From Escherichia coli (lineage in GTDB: Bacteria > Pseudomonadota > Gammaproteobacteria > Enterobacterales > Enterobacteriaceae), in assembly GCF_003019035.1 (NCBI RefSeq), contig NZ_CP027447.1: 64,000 bases of DNA, one strand, 5' to 3'. The position numbers were made by a program, and so were the translations under genes. The notes under the pieces were generated by a model. That model worked only from the letters and a program-made list of their open reading frames with translations, did no database searches and was not told where the DNA came from. Positions 1 through 56,990 of the stretch are shown one piece after another; within the stretch, counting starts at the first letter, position 1; every line of letters starts with the position of its first letter.

Positions 1-2410
<2,410 letters not shown>

Positions 2411-2462
2411 TTATCCTTAAGAGTGTAATAATTTCCTCCAGCTATCGCACTGGAGGAAAAAA

Positions 2463-2780
2463 TCAGGCATGGAGCTCTTTTCTTAATGAAATAATTTCCC
2501 TGGCTAAATCCTGGCATAATATTGCATTCATCAAATGATCCTGTGCATGAACCAGAATTAAATTAACTTCTATTTTGCCACAGCCTTCATCCTGACTAAT
2601 TAACGCGGTCTGAATCTTATGCGCCTGAAGACAGGCGGATTCAGAACTGGCCATTAGCTGAGTTGCGCCCTGCCAGTCTTTTTGCCCGGCACAACGTATG
2701 GCTTCCATCGCATCAGAACGGGCCTGTCCTGCGTTGACCAGTAACTCCATAACAAGTTCTTCATCTGCAAACATCAACAT
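2463..2780 (-). CDS. PTS lactose/cellobiose-family EIIA component
   Basis: 105 aa; resembles ChbA/CelC (helical IIA with LVHAQDHLM segment); position in IIB-IIC-IIA operon. Confidence 0.8.
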   Translation of the reverse strand: MLMFADEELVMELLVNAGQARSDAMEAIRCAGQKDWQGATQLMASSESACLQAHKIQTALISQDEGCGKIEVNLILVHAQDHLMNAILCQDLAREIISLRKELHA

Positions 2781-2801
2781 CTCCTTCCTGTGTAAATGGC
2801 A

Positions 2802-4124
2802 TTATCCGTTAGTTGTTAAGTTATTGACCTTGTTGGCGGCAATAACAAAAGGTAAATAGATCATTGTCGCCACACCTAAACATAAAAAACCCACCAGTAA
2901 CGCCAGCCAGTTTCCCCCGGTTCCGAGGAAAGCAATTAAAGGTCCGGGCGTAGTCCAGGGCACGGCATAAGCAACCGGTGGAATAATTTCCATCGAAACA
3001 AAGAAGTAACCAATGGCACAGTTAACAATAGGAACCATAATAAACGGCACCATCATGATGGGGTTAAGTACAATAGGAAGGCCGAACATTATCGGTTCAT
3101 TGATATTGAAAATACCGGGGATAAATGACATTTTTGCCAGATCACGGTATTCCGCACGCTTAGAAGCGATAAAAATAGCCAACAATAACCCCAACGTCAT
3201 ACCTGAACCGCCGCAGTTGGCGAATGCATCATTAATAGAAGTCCAGGTAATCGGATATGGCGCGCCCCAGGTAGTACCGTGTTGAGCGGCCCAGGAGAGA
3301 TTCTCCAGATTAGCCTCAGAAAAAACGGTTTCTCGAATTGCCGACGTTGTATTAGGTCCGTGGATCCCCAGCACCCAGAGGAAATTACCCACAGCCCCCA
3401 GGATAATTACCGCAAAGATATTCGTTCCCATATGTTTGAGCGGCGTCTGGATTAATGTGTAAATGAGGTCGTTTAATCCTGCCGGGGATATCAGTGTCAG
3501 GCAATAATTAAGTGCGGAAAAGAACACCATGACAAAAAATATTGGCAATAAAACTTTAAATGAACGCGCTACCGCAGGAGGTACAGCTGCCGGCATCGTG
3601 ATGGTGATTTTGGGGTTTCGAGCTAAGCGACAAAATATTTCACTGGTGATCAGTGCAACGATAACAGCAACAAATAACCCCTGCGCGCCGAGATATTTGG
3701 TCGTCAGGAATGCTTGCCCATCTATCATCTGATATGGCGTATATACAATAAAAAATGCTCCTATTGCCGTTAATCCGCATAAAAGATCATCTTGCTCATA
3801 GCTAATCGCCATATTCCTGGCGACCAGGAAAGCAATCATAATTGACATGATATTTACAGAACCATTCATTACCGGAGTAAAAATAGCTTGTGCTTTTTCA
3901 AGGTTGGGGAAAACGCTGTTCAGATGCAGCAGCCCGGCAATAAAGCCGTCGGGCGATAATATGGCAAAGTTAATTAATATAATTAATGAGCTTGCCATGA
4001 TAATTGGAAACGTAAAAACGAATCCATCTCTCACCGCTGCAACATGTTTTTGTGAGTTTAACTTGATAGCAACTGGAACAAGAAAACGTTCCATTCCACG
4101 TTCGAATGAGGCCATTAATCCCAT
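2802..4124 (-). CDS. PTS lactose/cellobiose-family EIIC permease
   Basis: 440 aa polytopic membrane protein between IIB and IIA genes. Confidence 0.8.
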   Translation of the reverse strand: MGLMASFERGMERFLVPVAIKLNSQKHVAAVRDGFVFTFPIIMASSLIILINFAILSPDGFIAGLLHLNSVFPNLEKAQAIFTPVMNGSVNIMSIMIAFLVARNMAISYEQDDLLCGLTAIGAFFIVYTPYQMIDGQAFLTTKYLGAQGLFVAVIVALITSEIFCRLARNPKITITMPAAVPPAVARSFKVLLPIFFVMVFFSALNYCLTLISPAGLNDLIYTLIQTPLKHMGTNIFAVIILGAVGNFLWVLGIHGPNTTSAIRETVFSEANLENLSWAAQHGTTWGAPYPITWTSINDAFANCGGSGMTLGLLLAIFIASKRAEYRDLAKMSFIPGIFNINEPIMFGLPIVLNPIMMVPFIMVPIVNCAIGYFFVSMEIIPPVAYAVPWTTPGPLIAFLGTGGNWLALLVGFLCLGVATMIYLPFVIAANKVNNLTTNG

Positions 4125-4237
4125 TTTTTATACCTGTTGTTTTGGATATTTATACATCCCAATAAAGCATGTATGCCATATCCATTTTATGATGTGTGAA
4201 AAGTTAGTTCAGGTAATAGTTTAATAAAATTAGATTC

Positions 4238-4549
4238 TTACTGTTGCAGTAGTTTCATCGCAAATTCAAGAACTGCCTGTCCGTTCATGGTGCCATAGTC
4301 TTTCATCTCGATAACAGCTACAGGCATTTTCCCCTGTGCAACAGCTTCAATCTCTGGTTTCTGAAAGCGAACTTGCGGGCCAAGTAAAACAACGTCAACT
4401 TCGTTATTTTTAATTTTCCCTTTAGCCTCTGCAATCGCCAATGCGGAAATATTAACTTCAAGTGAAATAGCGTTAGCATGATCAATCATACGTTTAACCA
4501 GCATACTGGTTGACATGCCCGCAGCGCAAACTAACAATATCTTTTTCAT
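4238..4549 (-). CDS. PTS lactose/cellobiose-family EIIB component
   Basis: 103 aa; MKKILLVCAAGMSTSMLV phospho-cysteine loop typical of ChbB-type IIB. Confidence 0.8.
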   Translation of the reverse strand: MKKILLVCAAGMSTSMLVKRMIDHANAISLEVNISALAIAEAKGKIKNNEVDVVLLGPQVRFQKPEIEAVAQGKMPVAVIEMKDYGTMNGQAVLEFAMKLLQQ

Positions 4550-51825: not shown

Positions 51826-53674
51826 AGTTAACATTACAAGATATAAGTAATGGACGCACTCCCAATTAGTCTATTTAAATCGCCACGAGTTTAACTGACA
51901 ACCCATGATCAATTATGAATTGCAACTATTTCTGTAGTCACTTTTGTGGGGACAGTCCACAAAACTGCCAACTTCCGCTTCTTGCTCTTAGCGGACATTA
52001 GCATAGGCTATTTACCATAACGCCTCATTACGCGCACCGCCCAGACTGACTCAGCGCGTTTCTGGCATATCCCCGGTAAAACAAGTAACAAACCACCCGA
52101 AAATGAACACCAGAAACGCGACTTAAGAATCTACCCTATGAATGGATATGCACTCAACCGAATCGATCTTGGTTTCAATCTTTTTTATCGGGATCAGGCT
52201 TCTTTTTAGGTAACTTCGGGGGCTTAACTTGCTGATGACTTTGCGTTCGGCGCGTAAGCCAGGGATGGTCAGCTTTAGGTTTAACATAGTATTTTGAGCG
52301 TAAATCAATACGGGCATTATCCACTCGTTCATGGACACTCTTTTCATCATCCAGTGGTATAGGCTCCGGGCCATCAACATACTTTTCCCAGCCCAGCGCT
52401 TTCCCGTCATACAGAACGTTAATTTCACCGTCAAAGTTCTCGCATACAGTAACAACCGAATGCCTAAGTCGATATCCCCGGCCCTCACTGCGTACCTGAA
52501 ACGCACTGCTTTTGTACTGGAAAGTGAGATTTTTAGACAGAACGCGCTTCGCCTGTAGGCTGAAGATATAACCCAGTTCCTCTTCAGAATGGTGCACATC
52601 AAGATGAGCATTATCAGTAGTACGAGGCGACGTAGCGAACCGGTTGTTATAGGCTTCAATAAAGGTCGGCAACCATGCATTTGCTGTTTCAATATCACTG
52701 ATATTCTGAAGCCGCATTTCTTTGACCAGCCTGTCCTGTAGTGTCTGATTGGCGCGCTCTACCCGCCCTTTTGCCTGCGGGCTGTTGGCATGGATTGGCT
52801 CGATGCCCAGTGTCTTTATCGCACGAGTGAACTGGGTCAGCTCACCTTCCCGCTCTGGGTTATTTACCCTGAATATACTGTGTCTATCAGAGTAGAGAGC
52901 GAGCGGTACGCCATGATCATTAAGGTAACCCCGGAGGGTTTCCATGTAAGCCCGGGTTGTTTCAGCAGGCACAAAACGCAACGCCATCAACGCACTGGTG
53001 GCATCATCAATGAAAACGATCAGTGTACATCTGGGGCCTCGATTTTCAAACCAGTCATGAGGTGAGCCATCAATCTGGATCAGTTCACCGTAAGATGGTC
53101 GTCGCATGCGGCGTTGATATATACGGGCAATTTTACGACGGCGTTCACGCCATAACCCCTCTTCTATCATCCACTTTCTGAGAGTTTCAACGGATAAAGA
53201 TAAACCGTGTATCTCGCGCAATTTTTCGCACGCAAACGTAGGTCCAAAATCAGCGTAACGGCCTTTGAGGAGTGAAATTACTGTTGCTCTGAATTCAGTA
53301 GAAAAGGAATTATTAGGACGCTTTCCACGTCGGTGGGAAACCAGACCAGAAGGCCCTTCATTTCTATACCGTTGCACCAGACGTTTAACCTGCCGAATAG
53401 AAATGCCAATGCGTGCCGCAGCTTGTTCCTGAATAATCTGAAGTCGGTGGAGTTCCTTATGACTCATCGTAACAGTCTCTTTGATCATGAAAAATCCCCC
53501 AGAGAATTGTCTGGGGACATTTTAGAATGGTTCAAAGGGGACATTACAGCTTGGTGTTAACAATAGCCTGCTTCTCCGTGCCTTTCGGCACGTAAGAGGC
53601 TAACCTACATGTGTCTAGCATGAAATTGGCCTCAGATTAATGTTAAGCGTCTTGCAGGACGCGTAATGTTAACT
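51826..53674. mobile_element. Insertion sequence (family uncertain, IS481/ISNCY-like); boundaries tentative
   Basis: Single 437 aa DDE transposase ORF flanked by a 12-bp perfect inverted repeat agttaacattac (51826-51837) / gtaatgttaact (53663-53674); no clear target-site duplication seen. Confidence 0.35.
52175..53488 (-). CDS. DDE transposase with N-terminal HTH and rve-type integrase core
   Basis: 437 aa; HTH near N-terminus (IGISIRQVKRLVQRY); catalytic-triad candidates in IQIDGS, YSDRHSIF and KGRVERANQTL. Confidence 0.8.
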   Translation of the reverse strand: MIKETVTMSHKELHRLQIIQEQAAARIGISIRQVKRLVQRYRNEGPSGLVSHRRGKRPNNSFSTEFRATVISLLKGRYADFGPTFACEKLREIHGLSLSVETLRKWMIEEGLWRERRRKIARIYQRRMRRPSYGELIQIDGSPHDWFENRGPRCTLIVFIDDATSALMALRFVPAETTRAYMETLRGYLNDHGVPLALYSDRHSIFRVNNPEREGELTQFTRAIKTLGIEPIHANSPQAKGRVERANQTLQDRLVKEMRLQNISDIETANAWLPTFIEAYNNRFATSPRTTDNAHLDVHHSEEELGYIFSLQAKRVLSKNLTFQYKSSAFQVRSEGRGYRLRHSVVTVCENFDGEINVLYDGKALGWEKYVDGPEPIPLDDEKSVHERVDNARIDLRSKYYVKPKADHPWLTRRTQSHQQVKPPKLPKKKPDPDKKD

Positions 53675-54041: not shown

Positions 54042-54433
54042 ACCTCAATTTGGCCGGACATATAAATATCTAAACCAGAAAAAATCACTTACATAGCGTT
54101 ACAAACTCTTTAGTCTAAAGGTTCATCGTAAAACATTCCCCATACTTATCAGTCCGTTCCGCGCCAGGTAGCTCATTGCCTTATCTGGCAACCTGTAATC
54201 AGGTTTCCGCTTTTTCAGTTGGCTGGTCGTTTAACCGACATAGTTAATCCATTAATCTAGTTGCCGGATGTTGGTGGATTTTCGCGTTTTAGTTGTTCAT
54301 AAAAGTGCACAGCTTTAACCAGTTCTTCTGATGTAACTGGGACTGGTGAGGCAGTGAATAAGGCCTGAATTTGATAGTTCGGCCTGTCGTTACAATCCTC
54401 TTTTTTCGGTACATATTTCCAGTCACCAGACCA

Positions 54434-54892
54434 CTACTTCCCCTGAAAGTCCGTAACGCCTTTTTTCACGTAGCGATATCGCCATGCCACTGGTTTTGCT
54501 TGCCCCGCCGTTTCATGCCCTTCCTGATAATTAATCTCGCTCATTCATCGCCCCACTCATCACAATATGCTTCGACCGGAGTTTTTCCCGCTTCATAGTC
54601 ATCACGCTAGGATTCGACATCAGCAGCACTTCCACCGCGTAACTCACCATAGTCCATTAATAGTTCATCCCGCTCTTCAAAACTGATGTTATATTTAGCT
54701 GAACAAAAATCAGCCACTTTGTTCTTCCTCATCGTCTTTTATTTCGTGGTATGAGTAATTGCAGTAGTTAAAGAAAATTTCTTATGCTCCGTCATGAATT
54801 TCCTCAGGTGTTGCGTCATCGTCCACTTCGAATACATCCTCAAAATCTCCACCAGCTATTCCCGTTTCAATAATAATTTTGAACTTTCGCAT
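54434..54892 (-). other. Cluster of tiny overlapping ORFs (23-41 aa) in shifting frames; probably decayed gene(s)
   Basis: Hand translation gives 36, 41, 23 and 36 aa ORFs at 54782-54892, 54607-54732, 54531-54602 and 54434-54544; an alternative frame across the second gap reads protein-like DDYEAGKTPVEAYCDEWGDE; SD sequences are weak. Confidence 0.3.
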
Positions 54893-55154
54893 TTCACTAC
54901 CGCCCTTTCGGGCGGCCTCCTGATGTTCTGAGGGTGCAGAAATCCATCCGGTTAAGGATTAAATTTTATTTACAGAACTGAATTTAATTATTCAGATATA
55001 CGTATCTGTAGCCTTACGAATCTACTCACTGGATGCCTCTTTCATAAAAATAATCCAGTGGGTTTTATCGTTTTTTCCCTGTTCGTTGACAGATAACAGG
55101 TTTTCTGTCTGTCAGTGCCAGAATCTGGCTTACCGGTATTTGCGTTTCATTCCA

Positions 55155-55511
55155 TTAAAAAATCAGAACGCCGTGCGGCCTCAACACCCGAAAGGCTTCT
55201 TTAAATCTCTGTCGCGAATCATCACGCCAGGCATCTTTATTCAGCCGTCCATATTTCTTTCCCATCCAGGCGTTATCACCAACACTCTCAAGATGCGGAG
55301 GGTCTAATACAACCATCGAAAAAGATGCGTCTGCAAATGATAATGCACGAAAATCTGCGATAATGTCAGGGCTGATAATCAAGCGTCTCCCATTGCGTAA
55401 TGTGTATCCTTCTTTTCTGATATCGCTGAATATCGCCCGTTCGTCAGACTTATCGAACCAGAACATGCGGCTGCCACAGCACATATCAAGAATGGTTGCC
55501 GGTGCACTCAC
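55155..55511 (-). CDS. SAM-dependent methyltransferase-like protein (motif I and DPPH motif IV), possibly truncated
   Basis: 118 aa; ILDMCCGSR resembles SAM-binding motif I and VVLDPPH resembles the D/N-PP-Y/F/H motif IV of amino-methyltransferases; too short for a complete DNA MTase. Confidence 0.45.
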   Translation of the reverse strand: MSAPATILDMCCGSRMFWFDKSDERAIFSDIRKEGYTLRNGRRLIISPDIIADFRALSFADASFSMVVLDPPHLESVGDNAWMGKKYGRLNKDAWRDDSRQRFKEAFRVLRPHGVLIF

Positions 55512-55930
55512 TGCGCCACGTCCTGAAAATTACCCTGATAGAAAGCCAGTATGCGCTGCATAACTTCGCTCTTCCGGCACTCGCGACAGATTATGTTTAG
55601 GCGACTGTCGTAGCGACGTATTTCTCCGTCAGGTGATGACCAGATAAGGTCCGGATCAACCACAGCAGGTTTCTTCACCTTTGCCCTCGAGAGTTTTTTG
55701 CGGGCGTTTTGCCAGTCCTTACGCGCCTGTTCAGAGGGGAATAACCCGTAGCCGGAGTTGTATACATCGCCACTGGCTACCAGCTCTCTGGCAAGAACGC
55801 TCATCAGATATCTAGTCGCACCTGTTTTAGCTTCCAGTTGCCGTAACGTCTCACGGCCGCTCTGGCGCACGAGTTCCACCACCTGCCATTTAATTTTTTC
55901 CCGCTCTTCTTGTGTAAAAACTTTTGCCAC
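55508..55930 (-). CDS. Hypothetical protein (early-region, possible DNA-binding)
   Basis: 140 aa; basic; CRECR near C-terminus; stop overlaps the start of the methyltransferase-like ORF. Confidence 0.5.
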   Translation of the reverse strand: MAKVFTQEEREKIKWQVVELVRQSGRETLRQLEAKTGATRYLMSVLARELVASGDVYNSGYGLFPSEQARKDWQNARKKLSRAKVKKPAVVDPDLIWSSPDGEIRRYDSRLNIICRECRKSEVMQRILAFYQGNFQDVAQ

Positions 55931-55970
55931 AAGTCCCCCTTAAAATTACCTCATGACCTGAAATCAACAC

Positions 55971-56990
55971 TTATCCTCTGAAACCAGGCGGAATTTCTGT
56001 ATCCGGTTCAGAAATATGATTAACACAACGCTGTACAGGTGAACGTCCCAGGCGGATGACCAGTTCGTCCCATTTTTCGCGGAGCTTTGACGGGCTCATG
56101 ATGTTTTTTACCCAGAATGGATCTCGCTGAACCCGACCAAACATTTCGCAAATTTGTCTGTGGCTTCTGCCATCCAGCATCCGCATTGTGCGCACGTCAT
56201 TGGCCCAGGCAGTCCAGTTAGGCTCTTTTGGTCGCATGATCTCGCCATCATCACTGGCTGCCTGTTCGTAGAGACCCACGATCCGCCCCCAGATCCACTG
56301 CGCACACGCCAAATCCTCCCTGCTACCCCACTGGCGTTTTTTCGCACTAAACACAACCGCGTCGGAGTTCCGGGTTAAAAAATCCTGTTCAGTCGTCTGC
56401 GGGTCCGGTTGCGAAGCTTCCGGACGAAAAGTGTTTTTATTCTCTGTAGTAATCTCTGTTGTATTCTCTGTAAGATCATCAGGCCATTTTGACCCGATGA
56501 CATTGGGTCGTTTTGAACCAATGGAGCGTTTCATTTTGACCTCTTCCATCGTGTCATTTTGACCTGATGGAGCGGCGCATTTTGAACCGATGGATTCGCT
56601 CAATTTGCCACCATCTAAAAGCTCGCTCCCATAGTTGATCGTGTAGAAATTGGTCATATCGCGCTTTGATTTATTGAGCTTTTCACAACGCAAAAGCCCC
56701 AGCGTTTTCAGACTTGCAAACGCGCGCTTTAACGTTGACTCTGACCAGAATGGGAACTGTTCCAGCCATTGTTCCGTTGTGTTATAAATCCAGCGAACAC
56801 CATCACATTCCATGCCGGAGTTGGTATCTCTCAACCAGTAGTGCAGTTGTTGCAAAACAATGGCTTCGTTTAAGCCAATTTTCATTGCCAGCTGCGTGTT
56901 TATAACCAGTGGGCGTTCAGCAAAAAGAAGGCTCATAATTCCATCCAGCTTTTTGTTGGTATTGCTGTCGATACGCAAGTTTGAAAGCAA
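55971..56990 (-). CDS. Putative replication initiation protein (replisome-organiser-like)
   Basis: 339 aa ORF in the position of lambda O, downstream of the cro-like dicC; N-terminal winged-helix-like segment; start may be the internal MSLLFAERPLV. Confidence 0.45.
   Translation of the reverse strand: MLSNLRIDSNTNKKLDGIMSLLFAERPLVINTQLAMKIGLNEAIVLQQLHYWLRDTNSGMECDGVRWIYNTTEQWLEQFPFWSESTLKRAFASLKTLGLLRCEKLNKSKRDMTNFYTINYGSELLDGGKLSESIGSKCAAPSGQNDTMEEVKMKRSIGSKRPNVIGSKWPDDLTENTTEITTENKNTFRPEASQPDPQTTEQDFLTRNSDAVVFSAKKRQWGSREDLACAQWIWGRIVGLYEQAASDDGEIMRPKEPNWTAWANDVRTMRMLDGRSHRQICEMFGRVQRDPFWVKNIMSPSKLREKWDELVIRLGRSPVQRCVNHISEPDTEIPPGFRG

Follow-up and report, generated by a model that had tools for sequence, protein, structure and literature searches.

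The open reading frame of 118 codons at positions 55155..55511 (minus strand) of the window, a 64,000-nucleotide stretch of Escherichia coli contig NZ_CP027447.1, is very likely a pseudogene fragment of a phrog_954-type methyltransferase gene in a decaying prophage. We put the probability of this reading at about 0.92. The frame starts with GTG and comprises codons 1-118 of an ancestral gene of 162 codons, followed by a premature stop; the interval given includes this TAA. The rest of the gene can still be read downstream, where it carries a second lesion. Both lesions recur in more than 470 complete E. coli genomes.

Motifs and profile matches

Two motifs of this frame had been pointed out in the sequence-only reading, and both are there: motif I, ILDMCCGSR, at residues 7-15 (55467..55493, minus strand), and motif IV, VVLDPPH, at residues 67-73 (55293..55313, minus strand). 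In the structural model described below, residues 7-11 form strand 1, followed by the glycine loop, and VVLDPPH lies at the end of strand 4. The placement of ILDMC on strand 1 and of MVVLD on strand 4 agrees with the proposal that the motifs have the order and spacing found in amino-methyltransferases. The frame ends 45 residues after DPPH, close to the 40 or so estimated at first.

The profile search suggested earlier as a check was run with Pfam, PHROGs and PADLOC, and it found homology to a methyltransferase family. The 118-residue sequence matches the PHROG family phrog_954, 'DNA methyltransferase', with E=6.7e-58, at positions 52-165 of the 229-position profile only. In Pfam it has marginal matches only, to Methyltransf_11 and Methyltransf_25, and no family-level match was found in the NCBIfam profile library. 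The protein obtained by repairing both lesions matches the PADLOC profiles PDLC03288 'MTase_II' (Type II methyltransferase, E=1.8e-66) and PDLC03730 'oMTase' (orphan methyltransferase, E=3.4e-45). Motif I, the acidic residue D30 of motif II and D-P-P-H are all retained in the 118-residue frame. Judging by the profile matches and the invariance of DPPH, the two motifs are genuine methyltransferase motifs and a chance pattern is excluded.

Two lesions in an ancestral gene of 162 codons

Intact homologues have 157-165 amino acids. Examples are the 160-residue protein of Klebsiella phage ST846-OXA48phi9.2 (QBP07693.1), a 164-residue protein of an Stx2c phage, and proteins of 157 and 162 residues from E. 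coli prophages. The lesions were placed by aligning the DNA of the window with that of the Stx2c phage copy and of three E. coli copies, two of them intact and one decayed. The first is a premature TAA replacing AAA, the codon of Lys119 (55155..55157, minus strand; alignment column 359), by an A-to-T change at 55157 in the minus-strand reading. After this TAA, 25 codons keep matching intact homologues in frame (codons 120-144, 55080..55154, minus strand; WNETQIPVSQILALTDRKPVICQRT). The second lesion, at about codon 146 and some 27 codons past the first, is a GGG run with one extra G compared to intact homologues, that is, a +1 frameshift (55077..55079, minus strand; alignment column 437). The last 17 codons, KNDKTHWIIFMKEASSE, are out of frame and lead to the original TAG at 55022-55024 (remnant 55022..55076, minus strand).

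Read through its stop, the window gives HGVLIF, the stop, WNETQIPVSQILALTDRKPVICQRTGKKR and another stop, where homologues have HGVLIFKWNETQIPV.QILALTD.KP.IGQRTGK.DKTHWIIF.K. The +1 frame of the window carries on as GKNDKTHWIIFMKEASSE up to a stop codon. When both lesions are repaired, a frame of 162 codons closes at the ancestral TAG, and the part after the second repair matches homologues up to that stop. Intact relatives have neither the TAA nor the extra G. The 118-codon frame is the 5' 72% of the gene and lacks the C-terminal 44 residues of every intact member of the family.

The idea of a truncated phage methylase is borne out in that the gene is cut by a nonsense codon, its remainder is still readable downstream, and intact homologues are longer. 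The alignment with intact relatives located both lesions. The frame had further been called too short for a complete methylase. It is truncated indeed, but the complete enzyme is itself only about 160 residues long.

Residues 5-118 align end to end with enterobacterial members of phrog_954 at about 80% identity, with the same motif I, D30 and DPPH. However, every intact member continues past codon 119, where the window copy stops, and has the invariant residues K119, W120 and P138 that this copy lacks. At four of 44 highly conserved columns (P58S, F69L, G102R and G141C) the repaired protein differs from the consensus of the family, whereas its five closest intact relatives have zero or one such difference. 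This gives modest support to the notion that constraint on the repaired protein has been relaxed. The two alleles that were compared differ by two synonymous and two non-synonymous substitutions in the frame and by two substitutions in the remnant, which is too few for a dN/dS estimate.

Predicted structure of the repaired protein

The AlphaFold model of the repaired 162-residue protein, made with a 60-sequence alignment, is a compact class I methyltransferase with a mean pLDDT of 94.7. It has strands 1 (residues 7-11) and 2 (26-30), a hairpin (34-46) and strand 4 (64-70). The C-terminal half contains helix D (95-109), strand 5 (110-121), helix E (127-131), strand 6 (140-144) and strand 7 (150-156). 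According to the model, strands 1-4, helix D and most of strand 5 would be left in the 118-residue product. The stop at codon 119 is predicted to remove the end of strand 5, helix E and strands 6-7, and with them the invariant K119, W120 and P138. The product therefore falls short of the complete core of about 155 residues, to which these elements belong.

Between strands 1 and 4, where helices A-C are usual for class I methyltransferases, DSSP assigns zero helices in the model, and the beta-hairpin 34-46 is found instead. On the model, the phrog_954 family would seem to be a Rossmann-like methyltransferase pared down to an unusual degree.

Distribution and annotation of the alleles

The alleles were counted in 5426 complete E. 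coli genomes by megablast with 41-mers centred on each lesion, so that a match requires the allele. Of these genomes, 474 have the nonsense allele and 471 the frameshift allele, each in one copy per genome and always on the chromosome. The intact AAA allele is present in 375 genomes, in up to four copies, with seven on plasmids. Since the lesions recur in more than 470 complete genomes, they are not errors of assembly or sequencing; the counts of 474 and 471 rule out sequencing error as their source. The lesions are old and fixed in a vertically inherited defective prophage, and intact copies circulate in other, more mobile prophages.

At least 1000 contigs carry the exact 118-residue sequence, which is RefSeq WP_001310834.1. 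Where a genome matches the window exactly, PGAP lists it as an ordinary CDS named 'class I SAM-dependent methyltransferase'; to a copy at 98.8% identity that has both lesions it gives the label 'SAM-dependent methyltransferase; frameshifted; internal stop'. The pseudogene C6W75_RS11095 of isolate 07-4299, the copies under WP_001310834.1 and the copy in the record of Escherichia phage PhiR42_1 are identical to the window or 98.8-99% identical at the DNA level and have the same two lesions, and for copies at this locus in other genomes the sole difference is annotation as CDS versus pseudogene. In the PhiR42_1 record the same truncated allele is entered as 'methyltransferase protein' XSB42581.1. 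Another 118-residue variant has the substitution R108W at a position invariant in the family.

The CDS label is a naming decision and says nothing on function. As a pseudogene the frame is ordinary, has entries in the databases already and is of little significance in itself, being one decayed gene of a defective lambdoid prophage present in about 9% of complete E. coli genomes. Consistent annotation as a pseudogene, with no methyltransferase CDS, is desirable. Inventories of E. coli methylomes and restriction-modification systems should leave out WP_001310834.1 as a potential methyltransferase.

Prophage context

The window carries a Qin-type (dicA/dicC) lambdoid prophage of E. coli, and positions 54400-56000 are 100% identical to many complete E. 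coli chromosomes. The order in one identical genome is dicA, dicC, a YdaT-like gene, an O-like hypothetical gene, DUF977, the methyltransferase gene, two pseudogenes and an ISNCY transposase. The hypothetical protein encoded 5' of DUF977 matches O-like replication initiators in PHROGs. The intact QBP07693.1 and WP_001275735.1 (157 aa, E. coli 2002-3211) occupy the same site in the early/replication module.

The neighbourhood supports the pseudogene reading, as the next two genes downstream are also pseudogenes, followed by an IS, in genomes identical to the window. On the other hand, the start codon and the overlap with the DUF977 gene are kept, so that a polypeptide of 118 residues could still be made.

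These observations suggest the following history. A Qin-type prophage would once have held a gene of 162 codons for a small class I SAM-dependent methyltransferase of the phrog_954 family, sited in the early replication operon just 3' of the O-like replication gene and DUF977. An A-to-T change would have turned the codon of the invariant Lys119 into TAA, and a 1-bp insertion would have arisen 27 codons downstream. The locus would now yield at most the first 118 residues. Such a product would have an incomplete Rossmann-like sheet and would probably have lost methyltransferase activity. The operon is presumably silent under DicA repression.

Several other features of the segment were observed. 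The O-like protein frame (55971-56990, minus strand) has 339 codons from a TTG start and is annotated by PGAP with 321 amino acids (966 nt) in identical genomes; the two differ in the start codon alone. The coordinates of the two downstream pseudogenes were mapped from the PGAP annotation of a genome identical over 54400-56000. One is a DUF7167 gene with an internal stop (54710-54892, minus strand), also visible in the translation of the window as MRKFKIIIETGIAGGDFEDVFEVDDDATPEEIHDGA, a stop and EIFFNY; the other, a hypothetical gene (54123-54544, minus strand), has both a frameshift and an internal stop. A transposase frame of 437 codons (52175-53488, minus strand) corresponds to the gene that PGAP calls 'ISNCY family transposase' in matching genomes. 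Further insertions of IS3, IS5, IS66/ISEc22, IS1, ISVsa5 and IS903B are present in the same prophage stretch of other genomes, and this stretch is therefore an insertion hotspot.

The full YdaT/O-like/DUF977/methyltransferase segment is present in NZ_CP026085.1 (4.83 Mb, labelled E. coli DH5alpha), where the ISNCY transposase is partial. In the Qin prophage of K-12 MG1655 this segment is deleted, and the remnants ydfX and ydfW come after dicC. For NZ_CP026085.1 a check of the strain label may be worthwhile.

Alternative explanations

One alternative is retention of the fragment in a new role other than catalysis, for instance to bind SAM or to interfere with the homologous methyltransferase of a superinfecting phage. 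The allele occurs widely and is stable at a single locus on the chromosome, but vertical inheritance of a fixed defective prophage, with one chromosomal copy per genome, accounts for this spread. Motif I, D30 of motif II and DPPH are retained; however, R108W has hit an invariant position in the other 118-residue variant, and P58S, F69L and G102R all fall on highly conserved positions inside the window frame. No sign of selection was found in the comparisons made. We regard a new role as very improbable.

Another alternative concerns the upstream frame of 140 codons (55508..55930, minus strand), assigned to DUF977 / 'Ren-like exclusion protein' by Pfam (PF06163, E=5e-29) and PHROG. The GTG of the 118-codon frame overlaps its TGA as GTGA, and the same overlap of four nucleotides is seen in the PGAP annotation of an identical genome. 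The sequence-only reading offered this protein as a candidate partner of a minimal methyltransferase domain. On such an explanation the 118 residues would be a working module completed in trans, which is reminiscent of the fold neighbours Trm11, Bud23 and Trm9 that work with the partner Trm112. DUF977 also adjoins intact family members directly upstream in several E. coli prophages. However, it is two genes away from the methyltransferase gene in the Klebsiella phage, and it is absent beside the intact members of Erwinia phage vB_EhrS_49, Gordonia phage Pickett and Providencia phage PSTRCR_117lys. Comparison of DUF977 with Pfam, PHROGs and PADLOC found no match to a methyltransferase or Trm112-like family. 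Moreover, the truncation has taken away K119, W120, P138 and strands 6-7, that is, three invariant residues and two core strands. The missing part persists downstream as a decayed remnant, which therefore indicates recent truncation of a 162-residue enzyme and not an evolved short form. On these grounds the partner hypothesis lacks support and is hardly credible. Judging from its distribution and profile comparisons, DUF977 is a translationally overlapping neighbour and not a conserved methyltransferase partner.

Finally, programmed recoding, by stop readthrough plus frameshift, might be thought to restore the full-length enzyme, as both lesions are fixed together in about 470 genomes and the frameshift lies in a G3A6 homopolymer tract (GGGAAAAAA), a slippage-prone type of sequence, but it is exceedingly unlikely: two independent events are required, the stop is TAA followed by T, a context in which termination is efficient, neither feature occurs in intact relatives, and the neighbouring genes bear ordinary inactivating lesions, which fits neutral decay of the whole segment.

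The phrog_954 family and its substrate

Intact members of the parent family occur commonly in temperate phages, and their substrate would merit a biochemical test. The family is very large and comprises 7675 proteins at E<=1e-5 in a collection clustered at 90%, forming 1982 clusters at 50% identity, from temperate phages of Proteobacteria, Firmicutes, Actinobacteria, Bacteroidetes and Fusobacteria. Invariant positions in an alignment of 60 diverse members are D30, P48, D70-P71-P72-H73, E105, R108, K119, W120 and P138. Searches of Pfam and PDB found neither a Pfam family of its own nor a close solved structure. Full-length members consist of the catalytic core only, 157-170 residues, with no target-recognition domain. 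Searches of the literature on DUF977 with methyltransferase, orphan phage methylases and the smallest DNA methyltransferase found no study of this family, and papers on E. coli methylomes contained no enzyme of this type; the search on the DPPH motif was swamped by the antioxidant reagent of the same name.

DPPH is invariant and occupies the structural position of motif IV after strand 4, with His as the fourth residue. The canonical fourth residues of this motif, (D/N/S)PP(Y/F/W), do not include His. Motif I followed by an invariant DPPH at the end of strand 4 is the arrangement seen in methyltransferases of exocyclic amino groups, and with D-P-P-H in the place of motif IV the intact ancestor most probably transferred methyl to such a group on a nucleic-acid base.

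Compared with PDB, the single sequence had nothing below E=0.9, and the family profile matched only the generic methyltransferase PH0226 (3e-5), with Trm11 at E=0.1. Foldseek matches had E-values of 3e-5 or higher and were a mix of Trm11, an rRNA m4,2C synthase, M.TaqI, an N4-cytosine DNA methyltransferase and M.BceJIV. The fold and profile comparisons leave DNA and RNA amino-methyltransferases unseparated for this family.

No Pfam family of DNA methyltransferases was reached at its curated threshold, the nearest being PF01555 with 18.0 against 26.7 bits for one member (E=0.003). Beta-class N6-adenine/N4-cytosine DNA methyltransferases (PF01555; SpSL1_16, M.EcoGIX) likewise have D-P-P-aromatic/His at the end of strand 4. 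They share with the family of the window a pattern W...F.E.FRV about 20 residues past motif IV, and there is a weak pairwise similarity from DPPH to FRVL (E=9e-4). However, beta-class enzymes have motif IV ahead of motif I, with a target-recognition domain in between, whereas in the window family motif I comes first, this domain is absent and the protein has about 160 residues. Two enzymes considered as possible members, M.EcoGIX and the silent 'N6-adenine methylase' SpSL1_16 of the pneumococcal Streptococcus phage SpSL1, were rejected as beta-class DPPY enzymes.

The RNA amino-methyltransferases Trm11, TrmN, Trm14, RsmC and TrmM, which have the motif (D/N)PP(Y/F), are among the closest known systems. 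RNA m2G enzymes of the Trm11/RsmD type are recognized by a THUMP-like domain or the Trm112 partner, whereas the window family has no extra domain. The similarity to Trm11 amounts to the profile match at E=0.1, and its fold scores are no better than those of generic methyltransferases.

Phage records name family members variously as DNA, cytosine, N4-cytosine or plain methyltransferases. From this annotation and the weak similarity to DNA enzymes, phage DNA would be the most likely target of the ancestor. The earlier label of an antirestriction DNA methylase holds as regards a phage methylase; the antirestriction role on a DNA substrate is database annotation only. On balance we favour, with some reserve, the interpretation that intact members would be DNA amino-methyltransferases with little sequence specificity, made early from the replication module and serving in restriction evasion. 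A competing and rather doubtful interpretation is that they are no ordinary sequence-specific DNA methylases, acting instead on DNA independently of context or on single-stranded DNA, or else on RNA or another substrate.

Some members are longer than the core. A recurrent form of 248 residues in Leclercia and other Enterobacteriaceae has a conserved C-terminal extension of about 90 residues, containing LRYATKRIVELE and HHQRRLKHHINRMW, for which Pfam gives no match. Pfam likewise has no match for the N-terminal extensions of other members, which are 50-160 residues long and in one case have CxxC pairs. Pfam searches of members with N- or C-terminal extensions found no DNA- or RNA-binding domain.

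In Gordonia phage Pickett the small methyltransferase gp57 (158 aa, intact) overlaps by four nucleotides the 3' end of gp56, a 'DNA methylase' of 525 residues (gp56-gp57 at 918-2968 of the locus). This translational coupling hints that the small enzyme does something that the large one does not.
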